From a virus (taxonomy: Duplodnaviria > Heunggongvirae > Uroviricota > Caudoviricetes), in IMG/VR virus record IMGVR_UViG_2565956608_000007, positions 1 to 42,407 of that record: DNA of 42,407 bases; one strand, written 5' to 3'. The translations under genes were made by a program, and so were the position numbers. The stretch's first letter is position 1; each line of letters opens with the position of its first letter. The notes beneath the pieces are model-generated. The model was given only the letters and a program-made list of their open reading frames with translations. It had not been told where the DNA came from and did not search any database. Below are positions 5,078 to 41,710 of this stretch, in pieces.

Positions 5078-5509
5078 TTAAATCTTGTCGGCTTGCTTGC
5101 AGATGGTTTCTTGCAAGTCGTCTAATTTTTCATAAACGATAGTTAGCGTACCGATAGCCGACAATTCCGGAGGCATACAATCCATAGCGTTGGATAAAGC
5201 CATTCTGCAATTGCCAATATCCGCAGACCATGAATTAAGTTGATTGGAAGTTATAATGCTTGTTGGCTCTGTAAAATCACCACACTGCTCGTTTCCTGAA
5301 ATGAGCCACAGAACATCAGAATGAAGAATGTTAGCCAATTGGATTAACTGGTCAGCAAACGGAACAGTTTTTTCCGTTTCCCAGTTGTTAATGGTTTCGG
5401 TTGTTAAACCAAGATGATCAGCCAAAAAATCCTGAGACAGTCGAAGCGAAGATCTTTGATTTAATATTCTTTTGCCGATGGTTTTGGCTACGGTGATTTG
5501 AGTATTCAT
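5078..5509 (-). CDS. HTH (XRE-family) DNA-binding protein, first gene of leftward early operon
   Basis: 143-aa ORF with N-terminal helix-turn-helix (LRLSQDFLADHLGLTTETINNWE); preceded by operator-like palindromes. Confidence 0.7.
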   Translation of the reverse strand: MNTQITVAKTIGKRILNQRSSLRLSQDFLADHLGLTTETINNWETEKTVPFADQLIQLANILHSDVLWLISGNEQCGDFTEPTSIITSNQLNSWSADIGNCRMALSNAMDCMPPELSAIGTLTIVYEKLDDLQETICKQADKI

Positions 5510-8312: not shown

Positions 8313-8415
8313 AAAGAATCCTCAAACGTCTACTGGTTGCTGGCTATAACCGCGGCTTTTTGCGTGAGGAATTCGTGACTATGTGCTTTATAAAATTCGA
8401 TTTACGGAGTGTGTG

Positions 8416-10287
8416 ATGACCCCTGCTGAGTTATCTGAAAAATTGTGGGACAACGCCGAAAGAGTTGCGAAATACCTGCTTCCACGAGGACACCTCGAGG
8501 GCAAGGAGTGGTGCGCTGGTAATACCAATGGTGATGCCGGTAAGAGCCTGAAAATCAATCTCGGGGGTAAGAAGACTTGGGCGGATTTTGCAAGCGGCGA
8601 CAGCGGAGACCTGCTGGATCTTTGGGTGTTGGTGCGTAACTGCCAACTGCACGACGCTATGCGAGAAGCGAAAGAGTTCCTTGGGCTGAAGGACGACGAT
8701 AACCACTTTGAGGCAAAGAAGAAGACCTTCTCTCGCCCAACCAAAAAAGGCGTTAAAAAGGCGAGTCATTGCTACGACTACCTGGCTTCCCGTGGTATCA
8801 CCCGGGAGACAGCCGATCAATTCCGTGTTTCGGATGCAGTTGTCTGGTACCACGATGAAAACCGCGAAATTCCGGCAGTAGCGTTTCCGTATCTTCGCAA
8901 TGGCGAGCTGTTGCAGGTAAAGCGAATCGGCACTGAACGACCAAATGGCAAAAAGTTGATCATGGCTGAGGCGGATTGCGAACCATGTCTGTTTGGCTGG
9001 CAGGCTATGGACGCGAAAGCCCGAGCTGTTGTGCTTTGCGAAGGAGAGATTGACTGTATGACCTACTCGCAATTCGGTATCAGTGCTCTATCGGTACCGT
9101 TCGGCGGGGGAAAAGGTGCCAAACAGCAGTGGATCGAATACGAGTATCACAACCTCGACCGATTCGAAGAAATTTGGTTAAGCCTCGATAACGATGATGT
9201 TGGGCGGGAAGCCGCAAAAGAAATTGCTCGCCGTCTGGGTGAGCATCGTTGCCGCCTGGTAGAGCTGCCGCACAAAGATATCAACGAATGCCTAACTGCC
9301 GGGGTGAGCGAGGATGAAATCTGGCAATACTTAGGGACCGCTAAATTCTTTGACCCTGATGAACTCTGTTCTGCGGGTGATCTCCTTCAGGAAACACTGG
9401 ATGCATTCGAACATCGAGATGTTGGGTTATTTTCCAGCCCGTGGGATTCGCTGAACAATAATTTTAAATTCCGAGCCGGTGAACTGACGCTGGTTAACGG
9501 AGTGAACGGCCACGGTAAAACCGAGCTGGTGGGGCATATCGCAGTCAATGCCATGAGCCAAGGAGTTCGCGTATGCATTGCATCGCTGGAACTTAAGCCT
9601 GGGAAAATGTTGGCTCGTCTTACCCGGCAAACCATTTGCAGAAAAAACCCAGAACGTACTGAAATTATCATGACTAACGAGTGGTTTTCTGATCGTCTTT
9701 GGGTGTTCAAGCTCACCGGAACAGCAAAGGCCGGTCGTCTGTTGGAAATATTTGCCTATGCCAGACGCCGTTATGGAATCGATCTTTTCGTAATCGATAA
9801 CTTGGCAAAATGTGGGCTCGATGAAGAGGACTACGGTGGTCAGAAAGAATTTATCGATACCCTCTGCGACTTCAAAAATGAGCACAACTGCCATGTTCTG
9901 CTGGTAACGCATGCCAGAAAAACAAACGAAGCTGCACCAACAGGGAAAATGGATGTTAAAGGCACTGGCGCTTTAACCGACATGCCCGACAACGTTATGG
10001 CCGTCTGGCGTAATATCCCGCGAGAACTGGCGCAGCGCAAGGCTGAAAGAATGGGGTATGAGAGCCTTGATAAGGACGAGCAGACTGCTATCCAAATGCC
10101 CGCCTCAATGATTCGCCTGTTGAAACAACGTGAAGGGGAAGGCTGGATCGGAGACATAGGAGCCAATTTTGATTCCAGATCACATCAGTTTATCGAGGGT
10201 GATAAAGGGCCCTTCAATTACTTGGCTGGCAAACAGCAAAGTGAACTTGATATTGAGTGGGAAGCCACCAACGCAACGAGGTATTAA
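8416..10287 (+). CDS. bifunctional primase-helicase (Toprim domain + DnaB-like P-loop helicase)
   Basis: Toprim motif VVLCEGEIDCMTY; Walker A GVNGHGKTE and Walker B DLFVIDNL; GGAG ribosome-binding site before ATG at 8416. Confidence 0.8.
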   Translation: MTPAELSEKLWDNAERVAKYLLPRGHLEGKEWCAGNTNGDAGKSLKINLGGKKTWADFASGDSGDLLDLWVLVRNCQLHDAMREAKEFLGLKDDDNHFEAKKKTFSRPTKKGVKKASHCYDYLASRGITRETADQFRVSDAVVWYHDENREIPAVAFPYLRNGELLQVKRIGTERPNGKKLIMAEADCEPCLFGWQAMDAKARAVVLCEGEIDCMTYSQFGISALSVPFGGGKGAKQQWIEYEYHNLDRFEEIWLSLDNDDVGREAAKEIARRLGEHRCRLVELPHKDINECLTAGVSEDEIWQYLGTAKFFDPDELCSAGDLLQETLDAFEHRDVGLFSSPWDSLNNNFKFRAGELTLVNGVNGHGKTELVGHIAVNAMSQGVRVCIASLELKPGKMLARLTRQTICRKNPERTEIIMTNEWFSDRLWVFKLTGTAKAGRLLEIFAYARRRYGIDLFVIDNLAKCGLDEEDYGGQKEFIDTLCDFKNEHNCHVLLVTHARKTNEAAPTGKMDVKGTGALTDMPDNVMAVWRNIPRELAQRKAERMGYESLDKDEQTAIQMPASMIRLLKQREGEGWIGDIGANFDSRSHQFIEGDKGPFNYLAGKQQSELDIEWEATNATRY

Positions 10288-10289
10288 AA

Positions 10290-10601
10290 ATGGATCGCCT
10301 AATTAGAGAAATGTCGTACCTCTTTACCAAGCAGCGTTTTTTGGAGCTTCAGGAAGCGGCCAAAGACATCGCAATCGGTCATAGTGACTTTCCTGAGTGT
10401 TTCGGTCTTATTGCTGACGCCATCGCTGAATTTGTTGAAGACACTCCTGATGATGAGTGGCGAGAGTATGAAAAAATCCTCATGCACTACGTTGCTATGC
10501 GTACTCTGACGCTGTGGGGTAACGGGGATAAAGTTACTGATGTCCAGTGGGCACACCCTGGCTGGTTTGGCACTGCTGAAAAGGGAGAAACCATTCAATG
10601 A
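10290..10601 (+). CDS. hypothetical protein
   Basis: 103-aa ORF, stop overlaps the next start (ATGA). Confidence 0.5.
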   Translation: MDRLIREMSYLFTKQRFLELQEAAKDIAIGHSDFPECFGLIADAIAEFVEDTPDDEWREYEKILMHYVAMRTLTLWGNGDKVTDVQWAHPGWFGTAEKGETIQ

Positions 10602-11380
10602 AACTGGAAGCAGCACTCAAACATTTTAGTCCTCAGGGAATGCATATCAGCGACGATGTAAAGGGAACCTCTCCGGATCGTCTCACCGGCACTGATGTTA
10701 TGGCAGCGATTGGTACCACCAGCAGCCGTGCGCGGTTCGGCCTGGCGGCGTTCTTCGGTAAAGCGGGAATCAGCAAAACGGATGAACAGCTCGCAGTTCA
10801 GGCGCTGGCGCGATATGCGATGGATGTCGCACCGAAGAATGTTCGCAAAGCAGCTGGTGGCCAGTTCGGATGGTGTATGCAGATGTTGGCACAATTTGCC
10901 TTTGCTGATTACTCACGTTCAGCGGCTACCAGCGTGACGTGTCACAGTTGCAGTGGTACCGGGTTTATCTCCAGGAATGAGGATGTGGTTAAACATCCTG
11001 GTATTTTCGACGCCGACGGTGCTGAAGTAGTTGCCCCGAAGATTAAAAATGAGCTGGTGAATAGGGTTTGCGGAACATGCGGAGGAAAGAAAGTGATCCT
11101 TGCCCGGTGCAGGTGTGGCGGTAAAGGCGAAGTGTTGGACCGCAAAGCGACCAAAGACCGCGGCGCACCGGTTTTCAAAACGTGTGAACGTTGCTCTGGT
11201 AATGGCTTCTCTGCTATCTCCTCGGCTACAGTACACCGCGCCATTCTGAAGCGTCTCCCTGACCTCCATCAATCCTCATGGTCACGCAACTGGAAACCCT
11301 TCTATGAAATGCTGGTGGATACTCTGCGCCAGGGGGAGCGTCACGCAGCAGTGGAATTTGAGAAGGCGACAACTTATTAA
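10598..11380 (+). CDS. zinc-finger protein, putative late-gene antiterminator (Q-like)
   Basis: Four CxxCxGxG motifs; located between replication and lysis modules and followed by a promoter plus terminator pair. Confidence 0.4.
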   Translation: MKLEAALKHFSPQGMHISDDVKGTSPDRLTGTDVMAAIGTTSSRARFGLAAFFGKAGISKTDEQLAVQALARYAMDVAPKNVRKAAGGQFGWCMQMLAQFAFADYSRSAATSVTCHSCSGTGFISRNEDVVKHPGIFDADGAEVVAPKIKNELVNRVCGTCGGKKVILARCRCGGKGEVLDRKATKDRGAPVFKTCERCSGNGFSAISSATVHRAILKRLPDLHQSSWSRNWKPFYEMLVDTLRQGERHAAVEFEKATTY

Positions 11381-11470: not shown

Positions 11471-11494
11471 GCCTGTAGATAATTAACCTCGAAA

Positions 11495-11519
11495 AGCCCG
11501 CCACGTTGCGGGTTTTTTT
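11495..11519 (+). terminator. Rho-independent terminator (tR'-like)
   Basis: CCCGC-loop-GCGGG hairpin followed by TTTTTTT. Confidence 0.55.
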
Positions 11520-11674
11520 GTACCCGCATTTCCCGCGCACCGCCCGCGCATTCAATACGTCGAACCAATCCATTTGAAATGAGCCTTTGAGGAAGTCAGT
11601 TAGCGCTGGCGAGCCTCGACGGGCTGGTTTCCTGTGCGGCAAAGGTTCATTTCAAAGTAAGGCATACGCATATC

Positions 11675-12160
11675 ATGAGCATCACGCAAGAACGGCTGAA
11701 AGAGGTTCTGAAGTACGACCCTTTGACTGGTTTATTTGTTTGGATCAAGCGAACAAACTCTCGGTCTACGCCAGGCAATATAGCCGGGAACGCAGATACG
11801 TACGGCTATATCCAGATAATGATCGATAAGAAATTAATCTTCGCTCATCGGTTGGCTTTTTTATACATGGATGGTGCGCTGCCGCCAGCTGATAAGTGTG
11901 TCGATCATATCAATGGCAATCCCAAAGATAACCGATGGGACAACTTACGTATCGTTACCCAGTTTGTTAATCAGCAGAACAGGCATAAGGCCAGAAAAGG
12001 TGCGAAATCTGGGCTAATTGGAGCAAACTGGTGCAAGGATCGTGGCCTGTGGCGTTCTGCGATTAGCGTCAACGGGAAACGCAAAGATCTCGGTAGTTTC
12101 CAAACTGCGGAGTTGGCTCACGAGGCTTACATGAAAGCTAAAGCTGAAATGTGTCGTTAA
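11675..12160 (+). CDS. HNH homing-type endonuclease
   Basis: DHINGNPKDNRWDNLR HNH motif. Confidence 0.7.
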   Translation: MSITQERLKEVLKYDPLTGLFVWIKRTNSRSTPGNIAGNADTYGYIQIMIDKKLIFAHRLAFLYMDGALPPADKCVDHINGNPKDNRWDNLRIVTQFVNQQNRHKARKGAKSGLIGANWCKDRGLWRSAISVNGKRKDLGSFQTAELAHEAYMKAKAEMCR

Positions 12161-12441: not shown

Positions 12442-12465
12442 GGCTACCTTCGGGTGGCCTTTTTT
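12442..12465 (+). terminator. Rho-independent terminator with UUCG tetraloop
   Basis: GGCTACC-TTCG-GGTGGCC followed by TTTTTT. Confidence 0.55.
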
Positions 12466-12682
12466 GTTTCCCCTCCTTCTGAGAGAACTCACGGCAATGA
12501 AGTATTGACCGGCGGAATGATTTCGGCGTAATTTGTTTGTGTGGTGAATCCTTTCTAAGCGAAAGGGCGTTCCAGTCAACTGCTATCTGCAGGTATGCGC
12601 GCGGCTTTGCTGACTGGGGTAGAGTCACCGGGAGGCACCCGGCACCATGACAACAACAATACAAGTTTCAAATTCCTTGAGA

Positions 12683-12710
12683 GCCTGCCATAAAACGCAG
12701 GCCTTTTTTT
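12683..12710 (+). terminator. Rho-independent terminator
   Basis: GCCTGC-loop-GCAGGC followed by TTTTTTT. Confidence 0.55.
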
Positions 12711-12860
12711 ATGGTTTTGCAAACTGCTGCTACGCTTTGAGTTGTGGGAAGTAACTGAATGCCCGGTGGTTCTCCTGGACCGATAGTGAATCAGCCGATA
12801 CAGCTTCACCTCTGAGCATAAGTCTTACTCACACCTACCTTACAAATAGTCAACTCATTA

Positions 12861-12939: not shown

Positions 12940-13329
12940 ATGTCCGATCCATTAACCGGCACTGGTGCAGTTCTCGGCGGAGGCCTGCTGGGTTCAGTCC
13001 TGTATGGTGTCTTTACTCATACAGATTTCGGCGTGGTGTTTGGAGCGTTTGGTGGTGCGGTGTTTTACGTCGCGACAGCTGCAAACCTTACGCGTGCTCG
13101 CCTGGCTGCATATTTCCTTACATCATTCATTGTTGGAGTGCTTGGCGCCGGGTTTGTTGGTTCATGGCTAAATGCTGCCTCGAGTTATGAAAAACCACTG
13201 GATGCACTCGGTGCAGTGATTTTGTCTGCACTGTGTATAAAAATCCTAACTTTTCTTAATAACCAGGACCTGAACACCCTGTTCGGTTTTTTCTCACGGT
13301 TACGCGGAGGAGGGGGAAATGGTAATTGA
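12940..13329 (+). CDS. holin
   Basis: 129-aa hydrophobic protein with multiple predicted transmembrane segments at the head of the lysis cassette; GAGGGGG ribosome-binding site. Confidence 0.65.
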   Translation: MSDPLTGTGAVLGGGLLGSVLYGVFTHTDFGVVFGAFGGAVFYVATAANLTRARLAAYFLTSFIVGVLGAGFVGSWLNAASSYEKPLDALGAVILSALCIKILTFLNNQDLNTLFGFFSRLRGGGGNGN

Positions 13330-13597
13330 CCCGTCAGCTGTCTTTAACGCGTTTATCTGCTCGGTGATCGTCGTCGTTCTGATGTTCTACCAGCGCCATG
13401 GTGCCCGGCACCGTCCTTTTATCTCAATCCTGGCGTATATAACCATCCTGGTTTACGCAGTAATCCCATGGCAATTCATCTTCGGCCTCTATCGTGACTC
13501 CAGTTGGCTGGTGGTGATGTCGAACCTCCTGATATGCGCAGCTGTTATGAAGGTCCGGGGAAATCTGGCACGTCTGGTTGATCTTCTGAGGCACTAA
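13319..13597 (+). CDS. second holin-like membrane protein
   Basis: 92-aa hydrophobic protein between holin and endolysin. Confidence 0.5.
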   Translation: MVIDPSAVFNAFICSVIVVVLMFYQRHGARHRPFISILAYITILVYAVIPWQFIFGLYRDSSWLVVMSNLLICAAVMKVRGNLARLVDLLRH

Positions 13598-14139
13598 TGA
13601 CAAAAGACGAAATTTTTGACGCCATTCTTGGCAAAGAGGGCGGGTACGTTAATCACCCCGACGACAAAGGCGGCCCAACAAACTGGGGGATCACGCAAGC
13701 GGTAGCTCGCGCCCACGGTTATAACGGTGATATGCGCAACCTTACCCGCCAGCAGGCGCTGGATATCCTGACTGCTGACTACTGGACAGGGCCACGCTTC
13801 GACCTTGTTTCTGAGGTATCACCAGCCATCGCTGCCGAACTCTGCGACACAGGCGTAAACATGGGCCCATCAGTTCAGACCAAATGGTTTCAGCGCTGGC
13901 TGAATGTGTTCAACATTCAAGGCACGCTCTATCCCGATCTGATTGCTGATGGTTTTATCGGTCCGCGAACTATCAGCGCGTTAAAAAGCTATCTTTCCCG
14001 GCGCGGAAAAGAGGGTGAGTTGGTTATGCTTCGGGCCCTGAATTGTAGCCAGGGTCAGCGTTATCTTGAGCTGGCAGAACAGCGCAGCGCGAACGAGACG
14101 TTTGTTTATGGCTGGGTAAAGGAGCGGGTGGTTATATGA
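13597..14139 (+). CDS. endolysin, GH108-type muramidase with peptidoglycan-binding domain
   Basis: N-terminal motif EGGYVNHPDDKGGPTNWGIT characteristic of GH108 lysins; start overlaps upstream stop (TAATG). Confidence 0.85.
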   Translation: MTKDEIFDAILGKEGGYVNHPDDKGGPTNWGITQAVARAHGYNGDMRNLTRQQALDILTADYWTGPRFDLVSEVSPAIAAELCDTGVNMGPSVQTKWFQRWLNVFNIQGTLYPDLIADGFIGPRTISALKSYLSRRGKEGELVMLRALNCSQGQRYLELAEQRSANETFVYGWVKERVVI

Positions 14140-14405
14140 CGCTTGAGTTGATTACCGGATTCGTTATCGCGGTGTTTGCTGCTATTGCCGCCGCGTTTGG
14201 CCTGGGTCATTCACGCGGAACCAGCAAAGCGGAAGCGAAATCAGAACTGCAGCGCACCGAAGATAATGCAGCGGCCACGGTCGCAGCAGCAGATCGCCGG
14301 GTAGAGACAACGAAAGAGGCCAGCAATGTACAGCAGACCGTTAACCATATGCCTGGCGATGATGTTGATCGTGAGCTGCGCACAAACTGGACCCGTAAAG
14401 GTTGA
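14136..14405 (+). CDS. i-spanin (Rz-like)
   Basis: N-terminal transmembrane helix then charged periplasmic region; ATGA overlap with endolysin stop. Confidence 0.65.
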   Translation: MTLELITGFVIAVFAAIAAAFGLGHSRGTSKAEAKSELQRTEDNAAATVAAADRRVETTKEASNVQQTVNHMPGDDVDRELRTNWTRKG

Positions 14406-14556
14406 GGTTGTAGACACGGCTTGCGACTGGGTTAAACCCATCTACGGAACGGATCACGACTGGGATGTGCTGGACCGCCAGACGAAGAAAGACATCCTGG
14501 CGCATAACAAAACGTGGCAGGTGAACTGCCAAAAGGAGAAAGTCGATTTGAAGTAG
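14326..14556 (+). CDS. o-spanin (Rz1-like lipoprotein)
   Basis: Signal peptide with lipobox-like IVSC; begins inside the i-spanin gene in another frame and extends past it. Confidence 0.6.
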   Translation: MYSRPLTICLAMMLIVSCAQTGPVKVEVVDTACDWVKPIYGTDHDWDVLDRQTKKDILAHNKTWQVNCQKEKVDLK

Positions 14557-15234
14557 TAAAGCGGATAGACCGCCGCCGAAAGGTAATGCAGCAGTCATGA
14601 TGCTGCCCCGAGTCGCGTAATGGCGAGCAGGTATAGCAGACAGTTGTGAGGGTAAGTAAGGGAACATGCTCCGGTAAAGCAGCACGAACGCCATACGCGC
14701 ACCGGTTATCAGCGGCTAATAAGCGACAGAGACTCAAGGGCATGAGCGTGGCCACTTCGGGTAGTGGCAGCCATTACAAAGCTCACCTGCTGGTGGGCTT
14801 GATAATGGTTATAAACATAAGCAGTTTAATCAATCATATGATCATCTTACGCAATTGGATTTCTTCCTGCCCGTTGAGTTGGGCGTACTCCACTAATTGC
14901 TTAATAAGCGATTCTTTGTCATTAGACATCAAGGAAGAAACGTAAAGACCAGTTGTCCATTCAAAAACGCTCACTAAGGATAAGGGCGATTTTCTTGAGT
15001 ACTGATAATTTATTGAGAAGTTATTGCAGATTCTTTTCTTTTCCATGGGGTAAATTTGTACTTAATGCAAATTATCGGCATTTATAATGCTGTAATGGTT
15101 TGAGATAAATGAGTACTTCACTTTGGGTAAAAGATACTTTAGCACCGCTAAAAATAGTAGGATTAATCTTAGATTGTTGTTGTTTTTAGCAAAATATGAA
15201 TAATAAATTCAACTAAACACAACGATAACAACCG

Positions 15235-15684
15235 ATGAAAATTCAATCTATTACAATCGCTTTTCTGGTGGCGATATCGTCACCCTCATACTCAGCCTTT
15301 CAGGAAAGGGAATACAATACCTGGTATCAGAAAGATGCAGTGCTTTACGACATTACGCAGACCTCAGAGGGATTGCCTGTCATGATAAGCATCTCTCAAC
15401 CCGGGAGGGGAGCAGCAAATATGCTGGTGTCCTATATGTCCGATGGCAGTTGTGGAGATAAGAAGGAGTTGCTTAATGTGAATGGGAAGGATGTTCCTGC
15501 AACTTACAGGTGTGTATCGGTCGGGGCAAACAGGATTGAGCACTTTGCAGTTAATGATGCCGAAAAGGTCAATGAGATGGTTAACCACCTCAAGTCAGAT
15601 TTCACTTTGCTGCTTCAGAACGATATCAAAGTCTGGGCTGCGAACATAAAGACGCCGAAGTATGGCATAGCACCAAGATTTTAA
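15235..15684 (+). CDS. secreted protein of unknown function (cargo)
   Basis: 149-aa ORF with N-terminal signal peptide MKIQSITIAFLVAISSPSYSA; sits in a visibly AT-rich segment and is followed by a terminator. Confidence 0.6.
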   Translation: MKIQSITIAFLVAISSPSYSAFQEREYNTWYQKDAVLYDITQTSEGLPVMISISQPGRGAANMLVSYMSDGSCGDKKELLNVNGKDVPATYRCVSVGANRIEHFAVNDAEKVNEMVNHLKSDFTLLLQNDIKVWAANIKTPKYGIAPRF

Positions 15685-15698
15685 ATCGCTATATCTAA

Positions 15699-15718
15699 CC
15701 GCCTGAAGGCGGTTTTTT
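15699..15718 (+). terminator. Rho-independent terminator
   Basis: CCGCC-TGAA-GGCGG followed by TTTTTT. Confidence 0.6.
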
Positions 15719-15736
15719 AATGGCAATAACATTGGT

Positions 15737-15782
15737 TATCCCCTGAAAGGGATAAAGCACTGAATATCCCTTTCAGGGGATA
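15737..15782. repeat. perfect 18-bp inverted repeat (TATCCCCTGAAAGGGATA ... TATCCCTTTCAGGGGATA) with 10-bp spacer
   Basis: Second arm is the exact reverse complement of the first; each arm is itself a near-palindrome. Confidence 0.7.
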
Positions 15783-15787
15783 AATCG

Positions 15788-15811
15788 GCCTCGCAATAGC
15801 GGGGCTTTTTT
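15788..15811 (+). terminator. Rho-independent terminator
   Basis: GCCTCGC-AATA-GCGGGGC followed by TTTTTT. Confidence 0.55.
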
Positions 15812-15849
15812 CTGCGCCTCGTACGCGCATTTCAGAGAGTCTTTCAGTA

Positions 15850-15917
15850 GTGAGCCTGAGGAGCATCGTTAAAGGTGGCGACCTCTCTCGGGCGGTGCTC
15901 CTGTACGACAGGCTCAC
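15850..15917 (+). promoter_or_regulatory. long interrupted inverted repeat in the 5' leader of the cargo operon
   Basis: GTGAGCCTG/AGGAGCA pairs with TGCTCCT/CAGGCTCAC around a ~28-nt loop; ends 5 nt before the AAGGAAA ribosome-binding site. Confidence 0.45.
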
Positions 15918-15934
15918 ACCTTAAAGGAAACGCA

Positions 15935-16363
15935 ATGAAGAAATTTTTCACTGATGCGATAGCAAAAATAACTTTTTACGCGCTGCTCGCCGCTTTGCTA
16001 TTTGCTGTTACTACAGGGGCCGGTTCTTTATTGAGAGTAGTTGCCGCCGCCTACTGGGTGATCGTATTGCTTGGCGCGGTAGTTGGTTTGTTAGCTCTCA
16101 TTATTACGTTTGGTGTCGAGTATTCAAAGGATGATAAGTCCAGGCGGGAGGGTATTGAATACCTTGAACGCTTTGCTAAGCGCAAGAACGCAATAGCAAG
16201 AGTATGGGGATGGTTCTGCCTGGTGCTGGGTGCTTCCATGCTTGCATACGGTGGGTGGGTGTTTACAGCGGTAGCCTACGTAATAGCGTCATTGTTTGTG
16301 CGCCTGTGCTGTTCGCTTGCTCGTGATAAGGTCGAGAAACTAACCAAAAAAGAGGTGGCTTGA
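15935..16363 (+). CDS. integral membrane protein of unknown function
   Basis: 142-aa ORF from ATG 15935, about four hydrophobic segments. Confidence 0.6.
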   Translation: MKKFFTDAIAKITFYALLAALLFAVTTGAGSLLRVVAAAYWVIVLLGAVVGLLALIITFGVEYSKDDKSRREGIEYLERFAKRKNAIARVWGWFCLVLGASMLAYGGWVFTAVAYVIASLFVRLCCSLARDKVEKLTKKEVA

Positions 16364-16548
16364 TGGCTCGCTTAAATGTCGAAGTAATCCCGCCGAGTAA
16401 TGAGCAAATAAACCAGGTGATTGAAGAAATAAGCCGGAAATACGCACGTAAGCCACTTACTCCGCAGATCGAAGGCGAGCTCCAGCGTGAAGCTGCTCGA
16501 CTGGTGCGCCGGTTTACAAAAACGAAAGTTACTTTAGTGAGAGATTAA
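16360..16548 (+). CDS. small hypothetical protein
   Basis: 62-aa ORF, start overlaps upstream stop. Confidence 0.5.
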   Translation: MMARLNVEVIPPSNEQINQVIEEISRKYARKPLTPQIEGELQREAARLVRRFTKTKVTLVRD

Positions 16549-16552
16549 CTCG

Positions 16553-16957
16553 ATGAAAAAAATAACTGTCACGGTATCGGGTATTTCTCCATTTGTAATG
16601 GAAGTGGACTATCGCCCGGAAAAAAGTGAATTAGGTAATATTCTTCGAGCTCTTTCATGCGCAGCTGAAATTGTTTCAAGAGAGGCGGTGAAAATCGGCG
16701 AGGAAATACCCGTGGATATACTTCGTGAAACTGAATCATCCTTTCATTTAACAGATTGTGAACCTGCCGACACCGGGAAAACCGTTTATGAGGCAGTTTT
16801 TGAACTGAATGATGGTAAAAAAATCCTCGGCTATTCGGATCAAGACCAACCGAAGGCGAACGGAGAATATTACCACTGTGCAGCTACCAAAGACATGAAA
16901 GGGCGAGTTATCGTAGTGGCTAAATATGTCACTAATTTCCGTTTTACTCCGCTTTAA
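16553..16957 (+). CDS. hypothetical protein
   Basis: 134-aa ORF 5 nt after the previous stop; same operon. Confidence 0.6.
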   Translation: MKKITVTVSGISPFVMEVDYRPEKSELGNILRALSCAAEIVSREAVKIGEEIPVDILRETESSFHLTDCEPADTGKTVYEAVFELNDGKKILGYSDQDQPKANGEYYHCAATKDMKGRVIVVAKYVTNFRFTPL

Positions 16958-17024
16958 AGCTGATATTACAGGAGCCCTTCACTGAGGGGCTTCGATAATG
17001 TTTTTTGAGTGAGGATTGTTCAGA

Positions 17025-18029
17025 ATGGCTTCGATAAAAGAATCCACTGATGCCAATGGACAATCAAAATATTACGTCCACTGGAAGGATGAAAAATCCG
17101 GTCATGGACGCCGCCGCATTTTTAAGAATATTGATGATGCCGCACATCTTTTCTGGCAAAAACAGAATATCGAGCTGGATTGTCGAACTGCCAGCTGGAC
17201 CGGAATAGACCATTCCTGGACTTTCCGAAAGTTAATTCTGTTTTATCTGGGGTATCAGGCCGGCAAGCTGGAAAAAAATATCATACGGCTGTCGTCATAT
17301 ACGAAATGCCGTCACGATCTTCTCGCGGTAGACGGGCCGATACTGGAAAAAAATATTCTCCATATCAGCCATCGTGATATCGGTGATTCGGTTCGCACCG
17401 GCTGCCATCGCTGGATTCGTTCGGCTTTCTTCCTGCTGGTGGAAAAACGACTCATCGCTTTTAACCCTGTTGACCGTCCCGCGCGCCGGAAGCGTCGACC
17501 CATCACCATACCGCCATCATCATCGGTCAGGGAGCTACTGAATAACGCGCCAGTTCGTGAGCGTATCGCGTGCTGGCTCGGGATTTGTGGCCTGCGAATC
17601 GGTGAGGCTCTGGCGGTTACGTATAACGACGTGTCAGCCGACTGGATCGACATCCGGGGGCATGTTGTTGACGGCGTTATACATGAGGGGCTGAAAAGAG
17701 GAGTGGAGCGCCGGGTACGGATGCCGCGTGAGCTTTTCGCGTTGCTGGATAAAAGTAAACTCGGTACCTCTGAGCCTCTTATCTGCAACCAGTTTACCGG
17801 CACATGCCTCGCTACCAGCTACGGCACTCAGGGCGTTCTCGTCAGAACCCTGAACGACTATGGCATTAAGCGATTCCATCATCTTCGCCACTTTGCTGTA
17901 TCTCGCCTGGCAAACAAAGGCGTCGATATCCTGAAGGTTTCCCGACTTATTGGGCATTCGAACATCAAAACCACAATGGACGTTTACGGTCACCTGTTCG
18001 GTGAAGTGGTGGAGATGGATTTGGACTGA
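17025..18029 (+). CDS. second tyrosine recombinase / integrase embedded in the prophage
   Basis: C-terminal HHLRHFAVSRLANKGVDILKVSRLIGHSNIKTTMDVYGHL (HxxR ... Y signature); GAGGA ribosome-binding site. Confidence 0.85.
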   Translation: MASIKESTDANGQSKYYVHWKDEKSGHGRRRIFKNIDDAAHLFWQKQNIELDCRTASWTGIDHSWTFRKLILFYLGYQAGKLEKNIIRLSSYTKCRHDLLAVDGPILEKNILHISHRDIGDSVRTGCHRWIRSAFFLLVEKRLIAFNPVDRPARRKRRPITIPPSSSVRELLNNAPVRERIACWLGICGLRIGEALAVTYNDVSADWIDIRGHVVDGVIHEGLKRGVERRVRMPRELFALLDKSKLGTSEPLICNQFTGTCLATSYGTQGVLVRTLNDYGIKRFHHLRHFAVSRLANKGVDILKVSRLIGHSNIKTTMDVYGHLFGEVVEMDLD

Positions 18030-39624: not shown

Positions 39625-40668
39625 TCATATTAAAGCTTTTCGTAAAAGCGTCTTCCCAATTAAAACACCTTTTCGCTCTACAGTTTTATGCGCAAAATAA
39701 CAAACTATAAATAACAATGTTAATATTTGAATGTTGCTGTTGATATATGGGATTTGTAATTTTGAAACCACTAGTGACAAAGTATACCAAATCCAGTTAT
39801 GGAACAAGTATACAGCATAAGTCATTTCAGACAGTAAATTGCATGCTTTGGATTCAATGAATTTATCTCTAAACAACCACGAAACAAGGAAAATAATAAC
39901 TCCTGTAAATGCGTAGTTGTACTGGCCCCAGAATGGATTTATTTTCTCAATGAGAGATAAATGCAGATAGAACATAATTACGATGGATGCTAAAGCAATA
40001 ACCCGATTAACTAACTTATGCTCTACAAGATACACTACTACACCGATAAACAAAAATGGCGTATACAATGTAAAGTAAGCATTATGAAAATCATTAGCCA
40101 CAGGGAAAGGGTTAATGCTGGATATAAAAAACGATACAACAAGAAGGAGAACAGTCAAAACGTTTCCTTTGTTTATTATACCAGCTTTTTTAACTAATCC
40201 CATAAACACGTAGAACATCATTTCTATTCTTAGTGTCCATTCTACGCCAGCTAATGAAAGTGGAGTGTTAAAGAAATCACCTATGAGCAAAAGTCTTGGG
40301 ATTAGTATAGTTAGAGGTGGAACACCAGCACCGTTATAATACTGAACTAACATTTCTGCAATAACTGCAAAAATGTATAAAGGATATATTCTAAAAATCC
40401 TTTTTAAATAAAATTCAAAAGTTGCTTCTTTTTGTAAAACGTGGGTTATGATATATCCTGAAACAAGAAAGAAGATTACAACCCCCATAGCCCCACCGAA
40501 ACTGGCATCGGCAAGTAGACCGTAAAATGATCTAAGTGTTACGTGGTTACTTGGATCGCTCGCCCACGAAGCTAAATCTTTGTTGAACTTGTGGCCTAAC
40601 ACCACAAGAGAGAATGCAAAGATACGCATGTAATCTAAAAAAAGAATTCTACGATTGTTCATTTTCAT
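39625..40668 (-). CDS. acyltransferase family 3 membrane protein (OafA/Oac-like O-antigen acetyltransferase)
   Basis: About 347-aa polytopic membrane protein with acyltransferase-3-type N-terminus (RILFLDYMRIFAFSLVVLGH); markedly AT-rich; located between tail genes and attR. Confidence 0.75.
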   Translation of the reverse strand: MKMNNRRILFLDYMRIFAFSLVVLGHKFNKDLASWASDPSNHVTLRSFYGLLADASFGGAMGVVIFFLVSGYIITHVLQKEATFEFYLKRIFRIYPLYIFAVIAEMLVQYYNGAGVPPLTILIPRLLLIGDFFNTPLSLAGVEWTLRIEMMFYVFMGLVKKAGIINKGNVLTVLLLVVSFFISSINPFPVANDFHNAYFTLYTPFLFIGVVVYLVEHKLVNRVIALASIVIMFYLHLSLIEKINPFWGQYNYAFTGVIIFLVSWLFRDKFIESKACNLLSEMTYAVYLFHNWIWYTLSLVVSKLQIPYINSNIQILTLLFIVCYFAHKTVERKGVLIGKTLLRKALI

Positions 40669-41347: not shown

Positions 41348-41710
41348 TGGTGGAGCTGGCGGGAGTTGAACCCGCGTCCGAAATTCCTACATCCTCGGTA
41401 CTACATGCTTAGTCAGTCTTTACATTCGCTTGCCAGCTGCGGACGGACACGCCACTAACAAACTAGCCTGATTAAGTTTTAACGCTTCAACCCCAGGCAG
41501 GGCTTCCACGCGATCTCTTTTGGGTTTGACCTCTCTTGATCCCCGTCCTAAGAGCGGAGGCTAGGGAGAGAGGGCTCTAAGCAGGTTATTAAGCTGCTAA
41601 AGCGTAGTTTTCGTCGTTTGCGACTATTTTTTGCGGCTTTTTACGAGGCCAACCGCCCCTCGGCATGCACCTTGGGTTTCGCAAATCCCGTCGAATCCAG
41701 AATCAGCCCC
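41348..41710 (-). ncRNA. ssrA: tmRNA (transfer-messenger RNA, SsrA)
   Basis: Minus-strand sequence begins GGGGCTGATTCTGGATTCGACGGG and ends ...GGTTCAACTCCCGCCAGCTCCACCA; 363 nt; directly downstream of smpB. Confidence 0.95.
41355..41384. repeat. attR core inside ssrA (GCTGGCGGGAGTTGAACCCGCGTCCGAAAT)
   Basis: 29/30 identical to 1663-1692. Confidence 0.65.

Follow-up and report, generated by a model that had tools for sequence, protein, structure and literature searches.

In Salmonella Gifsy-1, the IsrK/orf45-anrP leader follows a Q-type antiterminator gene and an intrinsic terminator; its readthrough transcript, kept translationally inactive by its own structure, controls an antirepressor-like gene (PMC4825925). 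The operator consensus of HipB, an antitoxin and repressor, is TATCCN8GGATA (PMC3376134, PMC3920265); in the hip operators O1-O2 of E. coli two such sites stand 28 bp apart from start to start, as TTATCCGCTTAAGGGGATA-N10-TATCCTTTAGTGAGGATAA, and binding to operator DNA reportedly protects HipB from Lon (PMC3376134). In phage P22, small-RNA sequencing published in 2026 revealed an 89-nt RNA, "P22F", that accumulates in infected cells and vesicles (PMC13397905). These systems bear on a 236-nt intergenic stretch (positions 15699-15934) of the viral record IMGVR_UViG_2565956608_000007, whose whole 42,407 nt, analyzed here, we call the window. This stretch holds two terminators, T1 and T2, an inverted repeat between them and, after T2, a leader RNA that precedes the open reading frame (ORF) ORF142.

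We propose, with a probability of about 0.6, that the stretch is a mosaic joint in the Q-dependent late operon of a lambdoid prophage, made of three unrelated functional units: T1, which ends an inserted moron for a secreted protein; the inverted repeat; and T2 together with the leader RNA. A preliminary description based on the sequence had instead read it as a single densely structured leader controlling a "cargo operon," with attenuation as one of the suggested modes. All four structures that it listed are present, and their density is not due to chance, since 15690-15945 folds at -110.5 kcal/mol compared to -72.8 +/- 4.5 kcal/mol for 200 dinucleotide shuffles (z = -8.3, with 0/200 as good). 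The structures nevertheless belong to separate modules with separate histories, and the "cargo" turned out to be accessory genes set within a lambdoid late operon.

Anatomy, covariation and distribution of the leader RNA

The leader RNA occupies 15812-15942 and comprises the following elements.

15813-15829, + strand: H0, a small hairpin (TGCGC-CTCGTAC-GCGCA) at the 5' end of the leader
15835-15839, + strand: 5' strand of a pseudoknot, GAGAG, pairing with 15885-15889
15841-15868, + strand: 5' arm of the long hairpin, lower and upper stems
15869-15892, + strand: apical region, with a mini-hairpin (15873-15876/15881-15884, loop GGCG)
15885-15889, + strand: 3' strand of the pseudoknot, CTCTC, inside the apical region and followed by a conserved GGG
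15893-15926, + strand: 3' arm of the long hairpin, with a conserved 6-nt bulge, GTACGA, at 15903-15908
15924-15928 and 15935-15937, + strand: Shine-Dalgarno (SD) sequence AAGGA and ATG of ORF142

The preliminary description had placed a 16-bp interrupted stem 5 nt from the SD. This stem exists, but it is larger and takes in the first SD bases: the end of the 3' arm, AAAG (15923-15926), pairs with CTTT (15841-15844) and overlaps the first three bases of the SD (AAG, 15924-15926). The small hairpin H0 (15813-15817/15825-15829) had been missed, and the window pseudoknot can also be read in an alternative register, AGAGAG with CTCTCT. A covariance model, R1, built from 68 sequences of both main types of the leader (type 1 and P22 type), matches the window copy over the full model length with all helices present (113.5 bits, E = 1e-26).

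Conservation of the pairing across homologues, which had been set beforehand as the test of a structured regulatory RNA in front of the ribosome-binding site, is strong, and the long stem is part of a conserved RNA family. When 82 copies were aligned to R1, a fit that in itself favors the structure, 90% of cells formed standard pairs compared to 30-47% with partners slid by 1-3 columns, 29 of the 38 base pairs changed on both sides, and none of 500 shuffles reached any of five measures. The same compensatory changes are visible in plain MAFFT alignments. Compensated stems include GGAGCATCG/CGGTGCTCC versus GGAACGCCG/CGGCGTTCC, GGATACCAG/CTGGTTTCC versus GGATGTCAG/CTGACTTCC, and GCCTTTG/CAAAGG versus GCCGTTG/CAACGG. 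Within the 82 copies, the H0 helix is paired in 100% of cells, one of its pairs passing from C-G to U-A in 13 sequences, and the mini-hairpin has a middle pair divided almost evenly between G-C (38 sequences) and C-G (37).

The pseudoknot is found in every sequence class: 5-8 nt located just 5' of the hairpin can pair with the 3' end of the apical loop. The distance from this 5' strand down to the hairpin is 1-3 nt for the window type and 7-9 nt for the P22 type, and the conserved GGG always follows directly on the loop strand. There are seventeen flank/loop pairings, about nine of which are clearly distinct in sequence; they include the following.

CGAGAG/CTCTCG: type-1 consensus
AGAGAG/CTCTCT: window-like copies
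CACCGA/TCGGTG: P22
TACCGA/TCGGTG: locus L195
CGTCGA/TCGGTG: locus L254, with two G-U wobbles
CGTCGA/TCGACG: second window copy (11533-11678) and phage RothC, fully compensated
GAAAGT/ACTTTC: phi80, copy 2
TCCTAGAG/CTCTGGGG: locus L201
CTCAGAA/TTCTGAG: locus L148
CCAAAGA/TCTTTGG: locus L226
CCACAGAG/CTCTGTGG: locus L129

The series of wobble intermediates supports a pairing formed in RNA of the + strand. As the 5' strands of the two main types are not alignable in common columns, the pseudoknot was scored by a script of our own, whose usual score was reached by 95% of sequences compared to 12% of shuffled flanks; the cross-class control was only moderately clean, with 20% of cross pairings reaching that score between classes that share sequence. 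The 5' strand of the pseudoknot abuts the base of the ~28-bp hairpin whose tip it pairs with, which calls for a sharp fold-back or for mutual exclusion. Hence, we infer that either a fold-back at the conserved bulge sets the ~18-bp lower stem beside a ~16-17-bp stack of upper stem and pseudoknot, or only one of the two, pseudoknot or lower stem, can form at a time.

The leader is widespread. Its apical 19-mer, GGTGGCGACCTCTCTCGGG, occurs exactly in at least 120 IMG/VR viral contigs, as does the corresponding P22-type 19-mer, while a search with the type-1 consensus retrieved 152 phage records and the type-1 leader is carried by 641 of 5426 complete E. coli genomes. In phi80, the element is 100% identical to the type-1 consensus and lies immediately 5' of rha. 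In P22, a diverged version stands 5' of rha, with arms of 28 and 34 nt, a 6-nt bulge, a 24-nt apical region and the pseudoknot at the same position. Other carriers are HK639, HK106, epsilon34, SE1-like P22 relatives and many Stx1/Stx2 phages, and the hosts include Klebsiella, Enterobacter, Hafnia, Citrobacter and Pantoea. Model R1 also detects members that have diverged further, their apical regions being shorter or altered, as well as second leader copies in phi80, RothC and several contigs. The window itself contains such a second copy, 3' of the Q gene and of a terminator (11494-11520) and 5' of an HNH_3/AP2 endonuclease ORF (11675-12160).

11533-11678, + strand: second leader copy, P22-like type (R1 102.7 bits, E = 5e-24)
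11535-11550, + strand: H0 of the second copy
11558-11563 and 11616-11621, + strand: pseudoknot strands CGTCGA and TCGACG
11572-11599 and 11624-11657, + strand: arms of its hairpin

At gathering score, Rfam gave nothing in the region or in eight homologous loci, and at permissive thresholds (E <= 1-10) nothing on the element in the window, P22 or phi80. In the literature searched, neither the structure of the leader nor HipB boxes carried by phages turned out to be described. Altogether, comparative sequence analysis points to a well-supported structured RNA family, apparently undescribed as far as Rfam and the searchable literature show. A strongly covarying, pseudoknotted RNA of ~110-130 nt stands unannotated in the late operons of such much-studied phages as P22, phi80, HK022 and the Stx phages. 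The leader also provides a ready marker of cassette boundaries for prophage annotation and a candidate RNA family entry.

Other identities for the element were rejected. A cos or pac site does not suit an element that lies ~2.4 kb before cosQ/cosN in phi80, is present twice per genome and occurs in phages with different packaging genes. A coding explanation, through an in-frame upstream GTG ORF (15875) or a minus-strand ORF (15717-15917), fails as both frames are broken in relatives by 1-2-nt indels. The consensus of K-turns or hammerheads did not fit the CUGAGGA/GUACGA internal loop (by inspection only). A promoter inside the region was discarded, no sigma-70-like site being found on the + strand over 14500-17000; a weak TTTCAC-N17-TATTAA reading around H0 was seen by inspection in some relatives, not in the window type.

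The leader and the accessory genes behind it

An intrinsic terminator lies within 90 nt upstream of 73 of the 82 leader copies, and the next ORFs follow within ~10-25 nt. These ORFs are diverse accessory genes, encoding Rha (Phage_pRha + ORF11CD3), KilA-N and P22_AR_N antirepressor-like proteins, HNH_3/AP2 endonucleases (as behind the second window copy), TerB-like proteins, membrane proteins (ORF142) and proteins of unknown function. In most members, a pairing of 3-7 bp joins the AGG(T) of the SD to a TCT or (A/G)CCT located at the hairpin base or in the linker. Compared with phage Fraca, homology stops exactly at the last T of the post-Q terminator (11519) and resumes at 12442, so that the leader and the HNH gene form a ~920-bp cassette; sequence comparison thus indicates that leader and gene move together as a cassette.

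In the P22 (L136:1576) and phi80 (L134:2593) records, rha starts at a GTG within the leader hairpin, and a conserved SD and ATG lie 69 nt (P22) and 36 nt (phi80) downstream of this GTG; the annotated N-termini of rha in both phages are probably wrong. Moreover, P22F corresponds to AF217253 21301-21389, which after correction of the coordinate offset is L136:1551-1639, almost exactly the P22 hairpin. Hence, the leader RNA is made in P22, and its structured fragment is stable.

The most likely function of the leader is a cis-acting translational restraint of accessory late genes. In the proposed model, only Q-modified polymerase would pass the upstream terminator, and the leader would be made within the very abundant late transcript. 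The ~28-bp bulged hairpin, with its apical loop pseudoknotted to its own 5' flank over 5-8 nt, would pair through its base or the adjacent linker with the SD of the next gene, and this pseudoknot-clamped hairpin would occlude the SD. The leader would then restrain, and possibly gate, translation initiation of accessory and potentially harmful late genes, ORF142 here and Rha, KilA-N, antirepressor-like proteins and HNH endonucleases elsewhere, these DNA-binding proteins and nucleases being plausibly harmful in excess. If true, this would represent a general device letting phages keep potentially harmful accessory genes within an operon that is transcribed very strongly. According to an old observation, rha impairs phage growth only when the host lacks IHF, and control of Rha by the leader, if confirmed, could bear on this phenotype.

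Several observations speak against such a simple restraint. The leader part of the stretch (its last 131 nt), when folded alone, is only modestly unusual (z = -2.25 versus shuffles), so that the real evidence there is the covariation across homologues. The SD pairing is limited to 3-4 bp in some P22-type copies and in the window copy (TCT/AGG). In the stems, G-U cells (155) are not clearly above A-C cells (129), and the strand assignment consequently rests on operon direction, SD involvement, the wobble intermediates of the pseudoknot and the P22F reads. Finally, throttling translation would take no more than a plain hairpin, and the presence of a conserved pseudoknot, a conserved 6-nt bulge and invariant loop bases may point to a switch or to a specific partner; as these features exceed the needs of a throttle, a regulated switch and a processing or stability role stay live rivals.

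In the latter role, which we consider possible but rather improbable, RNase E or RNase III would cut nearby, and the structure would protect the message or yield a trans-acting small RNA like P22F. The near match of the 89-nt P22F to the P22 hairpin and its accumulation in infected cells and vesicles would suit this explanation, as would the position of the leader in an untranslated gap between gene blocks and its long bulged duplex, a plausible RNase III substrate of adequate length (~20 bp or more being needed). The ends of P22F, which lie 6 nt inside the basal stem on the 5' side and 9 nt past it on the 3' side, do not in our reading fit the 2-nt 3' stagger of an RNase III cut. Furthermore, a pure stability element would have no need of the conserved SD pairing, and no trans target is known.

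Somewhat less probable still is a true switch, riboswitch-like or controlled by a protein or a small RNA, in which the pseudoknot with the upper stem would alternate with the full SD-burying hairpin, the choice being set by a ligand, a phage or host protein, or a trans RNA. Loop and bulge bases are invariant beyond the needs of pairing, and the location of the 5' pseudoknot strand by the hairpin base may impose either a sharp fold-back or exclusive pairings. The translationally inactive readthrough leader IsrK/anrP, with its antirepressor-like gene downstream of Q, offers a precedent (PMC4825925). No alternative pairing is conserved across the leader types, though, and the candidate found in the window (I8, an alternative SD pairing of 15866-15877 with 15917-15928) was rejected, being lost in relatives. 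Nor do the downstream genes have a pathway in common from which a ligand could be guessed, and the leader shows no similarity to Rfam families or to isrK. Translational restraint stands as the preferred function of the leader.

The inverted repeat as candidate HipB-type sites

The inverted repeat between T1 and T2 has arms of 19 nt (15736-15754/15765-15783), 100% complementary and 10 nt apart. It is perfect, as first described, and each arm is itself palindromic; its length had been given as 18 bp. The 18-mer of the repeat occurs twice in the window compared to 0.02 expected, as two boxes.

15737-15754, no strand: box 1, TATCC-CCTGAAAG-GGATA, exact match to TATCCN8GGATA
15765-15782, no strand: box 2, TATCC-CTTTCAGG-GGATA, exact match to TATCCN8GGATA

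Box 2 is the exact reverse complement of box 1, with a start-to-start spacing of 28 bp, and this relation accounts for the 19-bp perfect inverted repeat. A protein-binding palindrome was among the functions suggested earlier and is the best reading of the repeat, though what is kept in relatives is two HipB-type sites and not the 18-bp hairpin. Thus, the inverted repeat is most likely a pair of putative HipB-type DNA sites, as judged from motif conservation, and the 19-bp RNA hairpin a by-product.

It is improbable that the repeat works instead as an RNA hairpin or a DNA cruciform (a stability element, an RNase III site or a recombination site), despite the perfect complementarity of the arms over 19 nt in the window and their dominance in the predicted RNA fold. 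In relatives, the box centers vary, are not complementary and are sometimes in direct rather than inverted orientation, while the palindrome of each arm is kept. The pairing between arms is thus unconserved where TATCC and GGATA are conserved, and the long hairpin is not what is maintained. In addition, half-site variants with one mismatch (TATAC...GGATA) occur without compensation, which favors a double-stranded DNA site over an RNA hairpin, and in the copy on the Enterobacter soli plasmid pENTAS01 both palindromes and terminators have decayed. Lambda-type ori iterons, repetitive extragenic palindromic elements and CRISPR repeats or mimics were also rejected, the 18-mer not being high-copy; the CRISPR-DR63 family reached only 17.8 bits against a 37-bit cutoff, and the 10-nt spacing is not spacer-sized.

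In 596 Gb of genomes, the 18-mer has 23 matches compared to ~17 expected by our own estimate, with at most one exact match per stretch. The matches in Serratia, Photorhabdus and Rahnella lie in arrays of 3-4 boxes, mostly spaced by 27-28 bp, directly 5' of hipB-hipA. A degenerate pair pattern was found in at least 120 viral contigs as 104 distinct versions with variable centers and spacers, where well under one contig would be expected by chance (an estimate assuming a collection of ~1e11 bases); since the pattern demanded exact TATCC/GGATA half-sites, only the variation of center and spacer is informative, and the constancy of the half-sites is not independent evidence. The orphan pairs of these contigs lie 3' of endolysin and Rz/Rz1 genes and 5' of HNH, TerS and TerL genes. 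Orphan pairs are thus common in the late regions of lambdoid phages, for example in L014, L057, L118 and L160. Among 240 leader-RNA loci, not selected for the motif, 115 hold an exact site compared to ~2 expected; most of these sites stand 650-1300 nt 3' of the leader. Where it was examined, the pair stops 9-13 nt short of the ATG of a small ORF, for instance of the DUF2560/P22 Orf80 family; these small ORFs were rejected as the box-binding protein, matching only DUF2560 or nothing. One version of the pair is shared by HK022 (39904-40054), mEp phages, g341c and Stx phages. This HK022-type version has matches in 2533 of 5426 complete E. coli genomes (~47%), in up to 5 places per genome, 1001 of these 2533 genomes covering at least 80% of the 80-nt query. 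A near-consensus single box, AATCC-N8-GGATA (one mismatch), was also seen in the early region of the window, at 5179-5196 (+ strand).

The protein binding these putative boxes would most likely be the host HipB or a HipB-like helix-turn-helix dimer. Three points count against HipB: tblastn against the window and the phage loci retrieved no hipA or hipB homologue, the box pair of the window has no promoter-like site next to it, and the motif could be shared by a helix-turn-helix protein other than HipB. The orphan HipB-type pairs in E. coli genomes suggest that temperate phages may be linked to a toxin-antitoxin system of persistence, which can be tested directly, and, as DNA-bound HipB is reportedly spared from Lon, a decoy or sensor role of the phage boxes is open to experiment.

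A more ambitious hypothesis, which we hold to be doubtful, would join both elements. The leader would be a new class of sensor RNA gating late accessory genes, and the adjoining orphan HipB operators would tie late development to the host hipBA. The leader would be compact and double-pseudoknotted, its lower stem bending back at the conserved GURYGR bulge to lie beside the coaxial upper stem and pseudoknot. In response to a ligand, a protein or an RNA, it could gate translation of antirepressor-like, KilA-N/Rha and homing-endonuclease genes in P22, phi80, Stx and other enterobacterial phages. In a decoy variant, the boxes would hold HipB or HipB-HipA on the phage DNA.

Proposed mosaic joint, genomic setting and known systems

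The two predicted terminators are ordinary, both having a G+C-rich stem, a short loop and a U-run on the + strand.

15697-15714 (stem) and 15713-15718 (T-run), + strand: T1, intrinsic terminator of the moron ORF, AACCGCCT-GA-AGGCGGTT then T6; 7 pairs, 5 of them G-C, loop of 4
15787-15806 (stem), T-run to 15811, + strand: T2, conserved intrinsic terminator 5' of the leader RNA, GGCCTCGC-AATA-GCGGGGCT then T5; 8 pairs, 6 of them G-C

They had been described as bracketing the palindrome; comparison with other loci did not bear out that the three form one unit. T1 begins 13 nt past the moron stop codon and ends the moron: T1 and the moron ORF are conserved together in loci L118, L125 and L131, and L118 has the same ORF end, T1 and box pair, so that the moron ORF, T1 and the palindrome pair make up one module. 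By BLAST, 15211-15810 (ORF149, T1, the palindromes and a T2-like terminator) is 84.9% identical to pENTAS01, while 15779-15948 (T2, the small hairpin, the long hairpin and the SD) is ~86% identical to Klebsiella phages and E. coli prophages, where this block lies directly 3' of Rz/Rz1 and 5' of unrelated ORFs. T2 is free-standing, its exact 23-nt sequence occurring alone in phage Fraca (L395 5252-5274), after a small ORF and with no leader directly 3'; the phi80 record annotates its T2 equivalent as a putative terminator. The differing distributions of T1, of the boxes and of T2 with the leader argue for separate mosaic modules rather than for one leader, and terminators seem to act as mosaic joints between cassettes.

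These distributions make a transcription attenuator, in which the two terminators and the hairpins would control the downstream operon, very unlikely. Such a device could draw on two good intrinsic terminators within 115 nt and on a sub-threshold resemblance to Phe_leader (27.5 bits against a 55-bit cutoff), but neither a leader peptide nor a conserved choice between terminator and antiterminator came to light, related phages transcribe the operon with Q-modified polymerase, and the leader of other phages stands behind a single terminator, a tRNA gene or nothing. Equally remote is a DNA "linker" for homologous recombination between phage modules, without RNA function, since the leader does sit at mosaic joints and flank exchangeable gene cassettes but recombination homology yields no compensatory changes, wobble intermediates or covarying pseudoknot.

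The window is a lambdoid prophage with the following features around the joint.

8383-10287, + strand: primase/helicase
10598-11380, + strand: Q-like antiterminator
12512-12714, + strand: match to STnc100 (Rfam, 55.7 bits), between the HNH cassette and the holin gene
12940-14556, + strand: two holins, endolysin, Rz/Rz1
15235-15684, + strand: moron ORF, 149 amino acids, signal-peptide-like N-terminus, phrog_30865; stop codon at 15682-15684
15935-16363, + strand: ORF142, membrane protein of 142 amino acids, phrog_162 family (function unknown)

The studied region is hence the untranslated gap of the late operon from the lysis block to the packaging block. Two small ORFs follow ORF142, then a tyrosine-recombinase (Phage_integrase) ORF with a TTG start (17016-18029, + strand), at an unusual site between lysis and terminase genes, and 3' of it the genes of the small and large terminase subunits (+ strand). 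A full-length transfer-messenger RNA gene near the window end (41348-41710, minus strand, 295.8 bits) fits a prophage integrated at ssrA. The nearest phage modules are those of Yersinia, Escherichia and Klebsiella phages. The STnc100 family is also present in locus L015, 5' of the leader copy of that locus, and the STnc100 region may be an ancestral late-leader RNA region. In phi80, the pR' leader (L134 870-948) gives a sub-threshold isrJ match (25.1 bits against a 37-bit cutoff) on the short transcript from pR' to the terminator, which hints that IsrJ of Gifsy-1 is a late-promoter leader RNA.

Regarding known systems, the window boxes share with the hipBA operators O1-O4 the consensus, the 28-bp spacing of E. 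coli O1-O2, a helical phasing that would allow cooperative binding, and similar flanks (TTATCC...GGATAA), and genuine hipBA arrays hold the same 18-mer. The hipBA operators, however, have four sites and adjoin the hipBA promoter, whereas the window has two, between lysis and packaging genes, with no promoter-like site there.

The rha leaders of P22 and phi80, and with them P22F, belong to the same family as the window leader; they precede rha, while the window copy at 15812-15942 precedes a membrane-protein gene. For P22F, the 2026 paper gives an RNA defined by read coverage, of unknown function, and does not report structure, pseudoknot, family or distribution. The layout of IsrK, namely Q, terminator, leader and accessory gene, is shared by the second window copy (11533-11678). 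IsrK differs in acting via a trans-acting short isoform and translational coupling through orf45, with no pseudoknot described, and the only Rfam isrK match (11.8 bits, cutoff of 50) falls at 15637-15719, over T1 and not the leader, with none in P22 or phi80. IsrK/orf45-anrP is the closest functional precedent, without homology.

More broadly, preQ1-II/III, SAM-II, the T4 gene 32 pseudoknot, the ribosome-binding-site hairpins of T4 homing endonucleases and the RNase III hairpin of the lambda N leader all act in cis from a 5' leader, where a pseudoknot or hairpin takes in or adjoins the ribosome-binding site, and some of them control phage nuclease genes. The window leader stands apart from such SD-sequestering leaders by its ~28-bp bulged hairpin, with a loop paired to its own 5' flank, and by the heterogeneity of its downstream genes. 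This family, itself apparently undescribed, would represent a variety of the SD-occluding cis-regulatory leaders.

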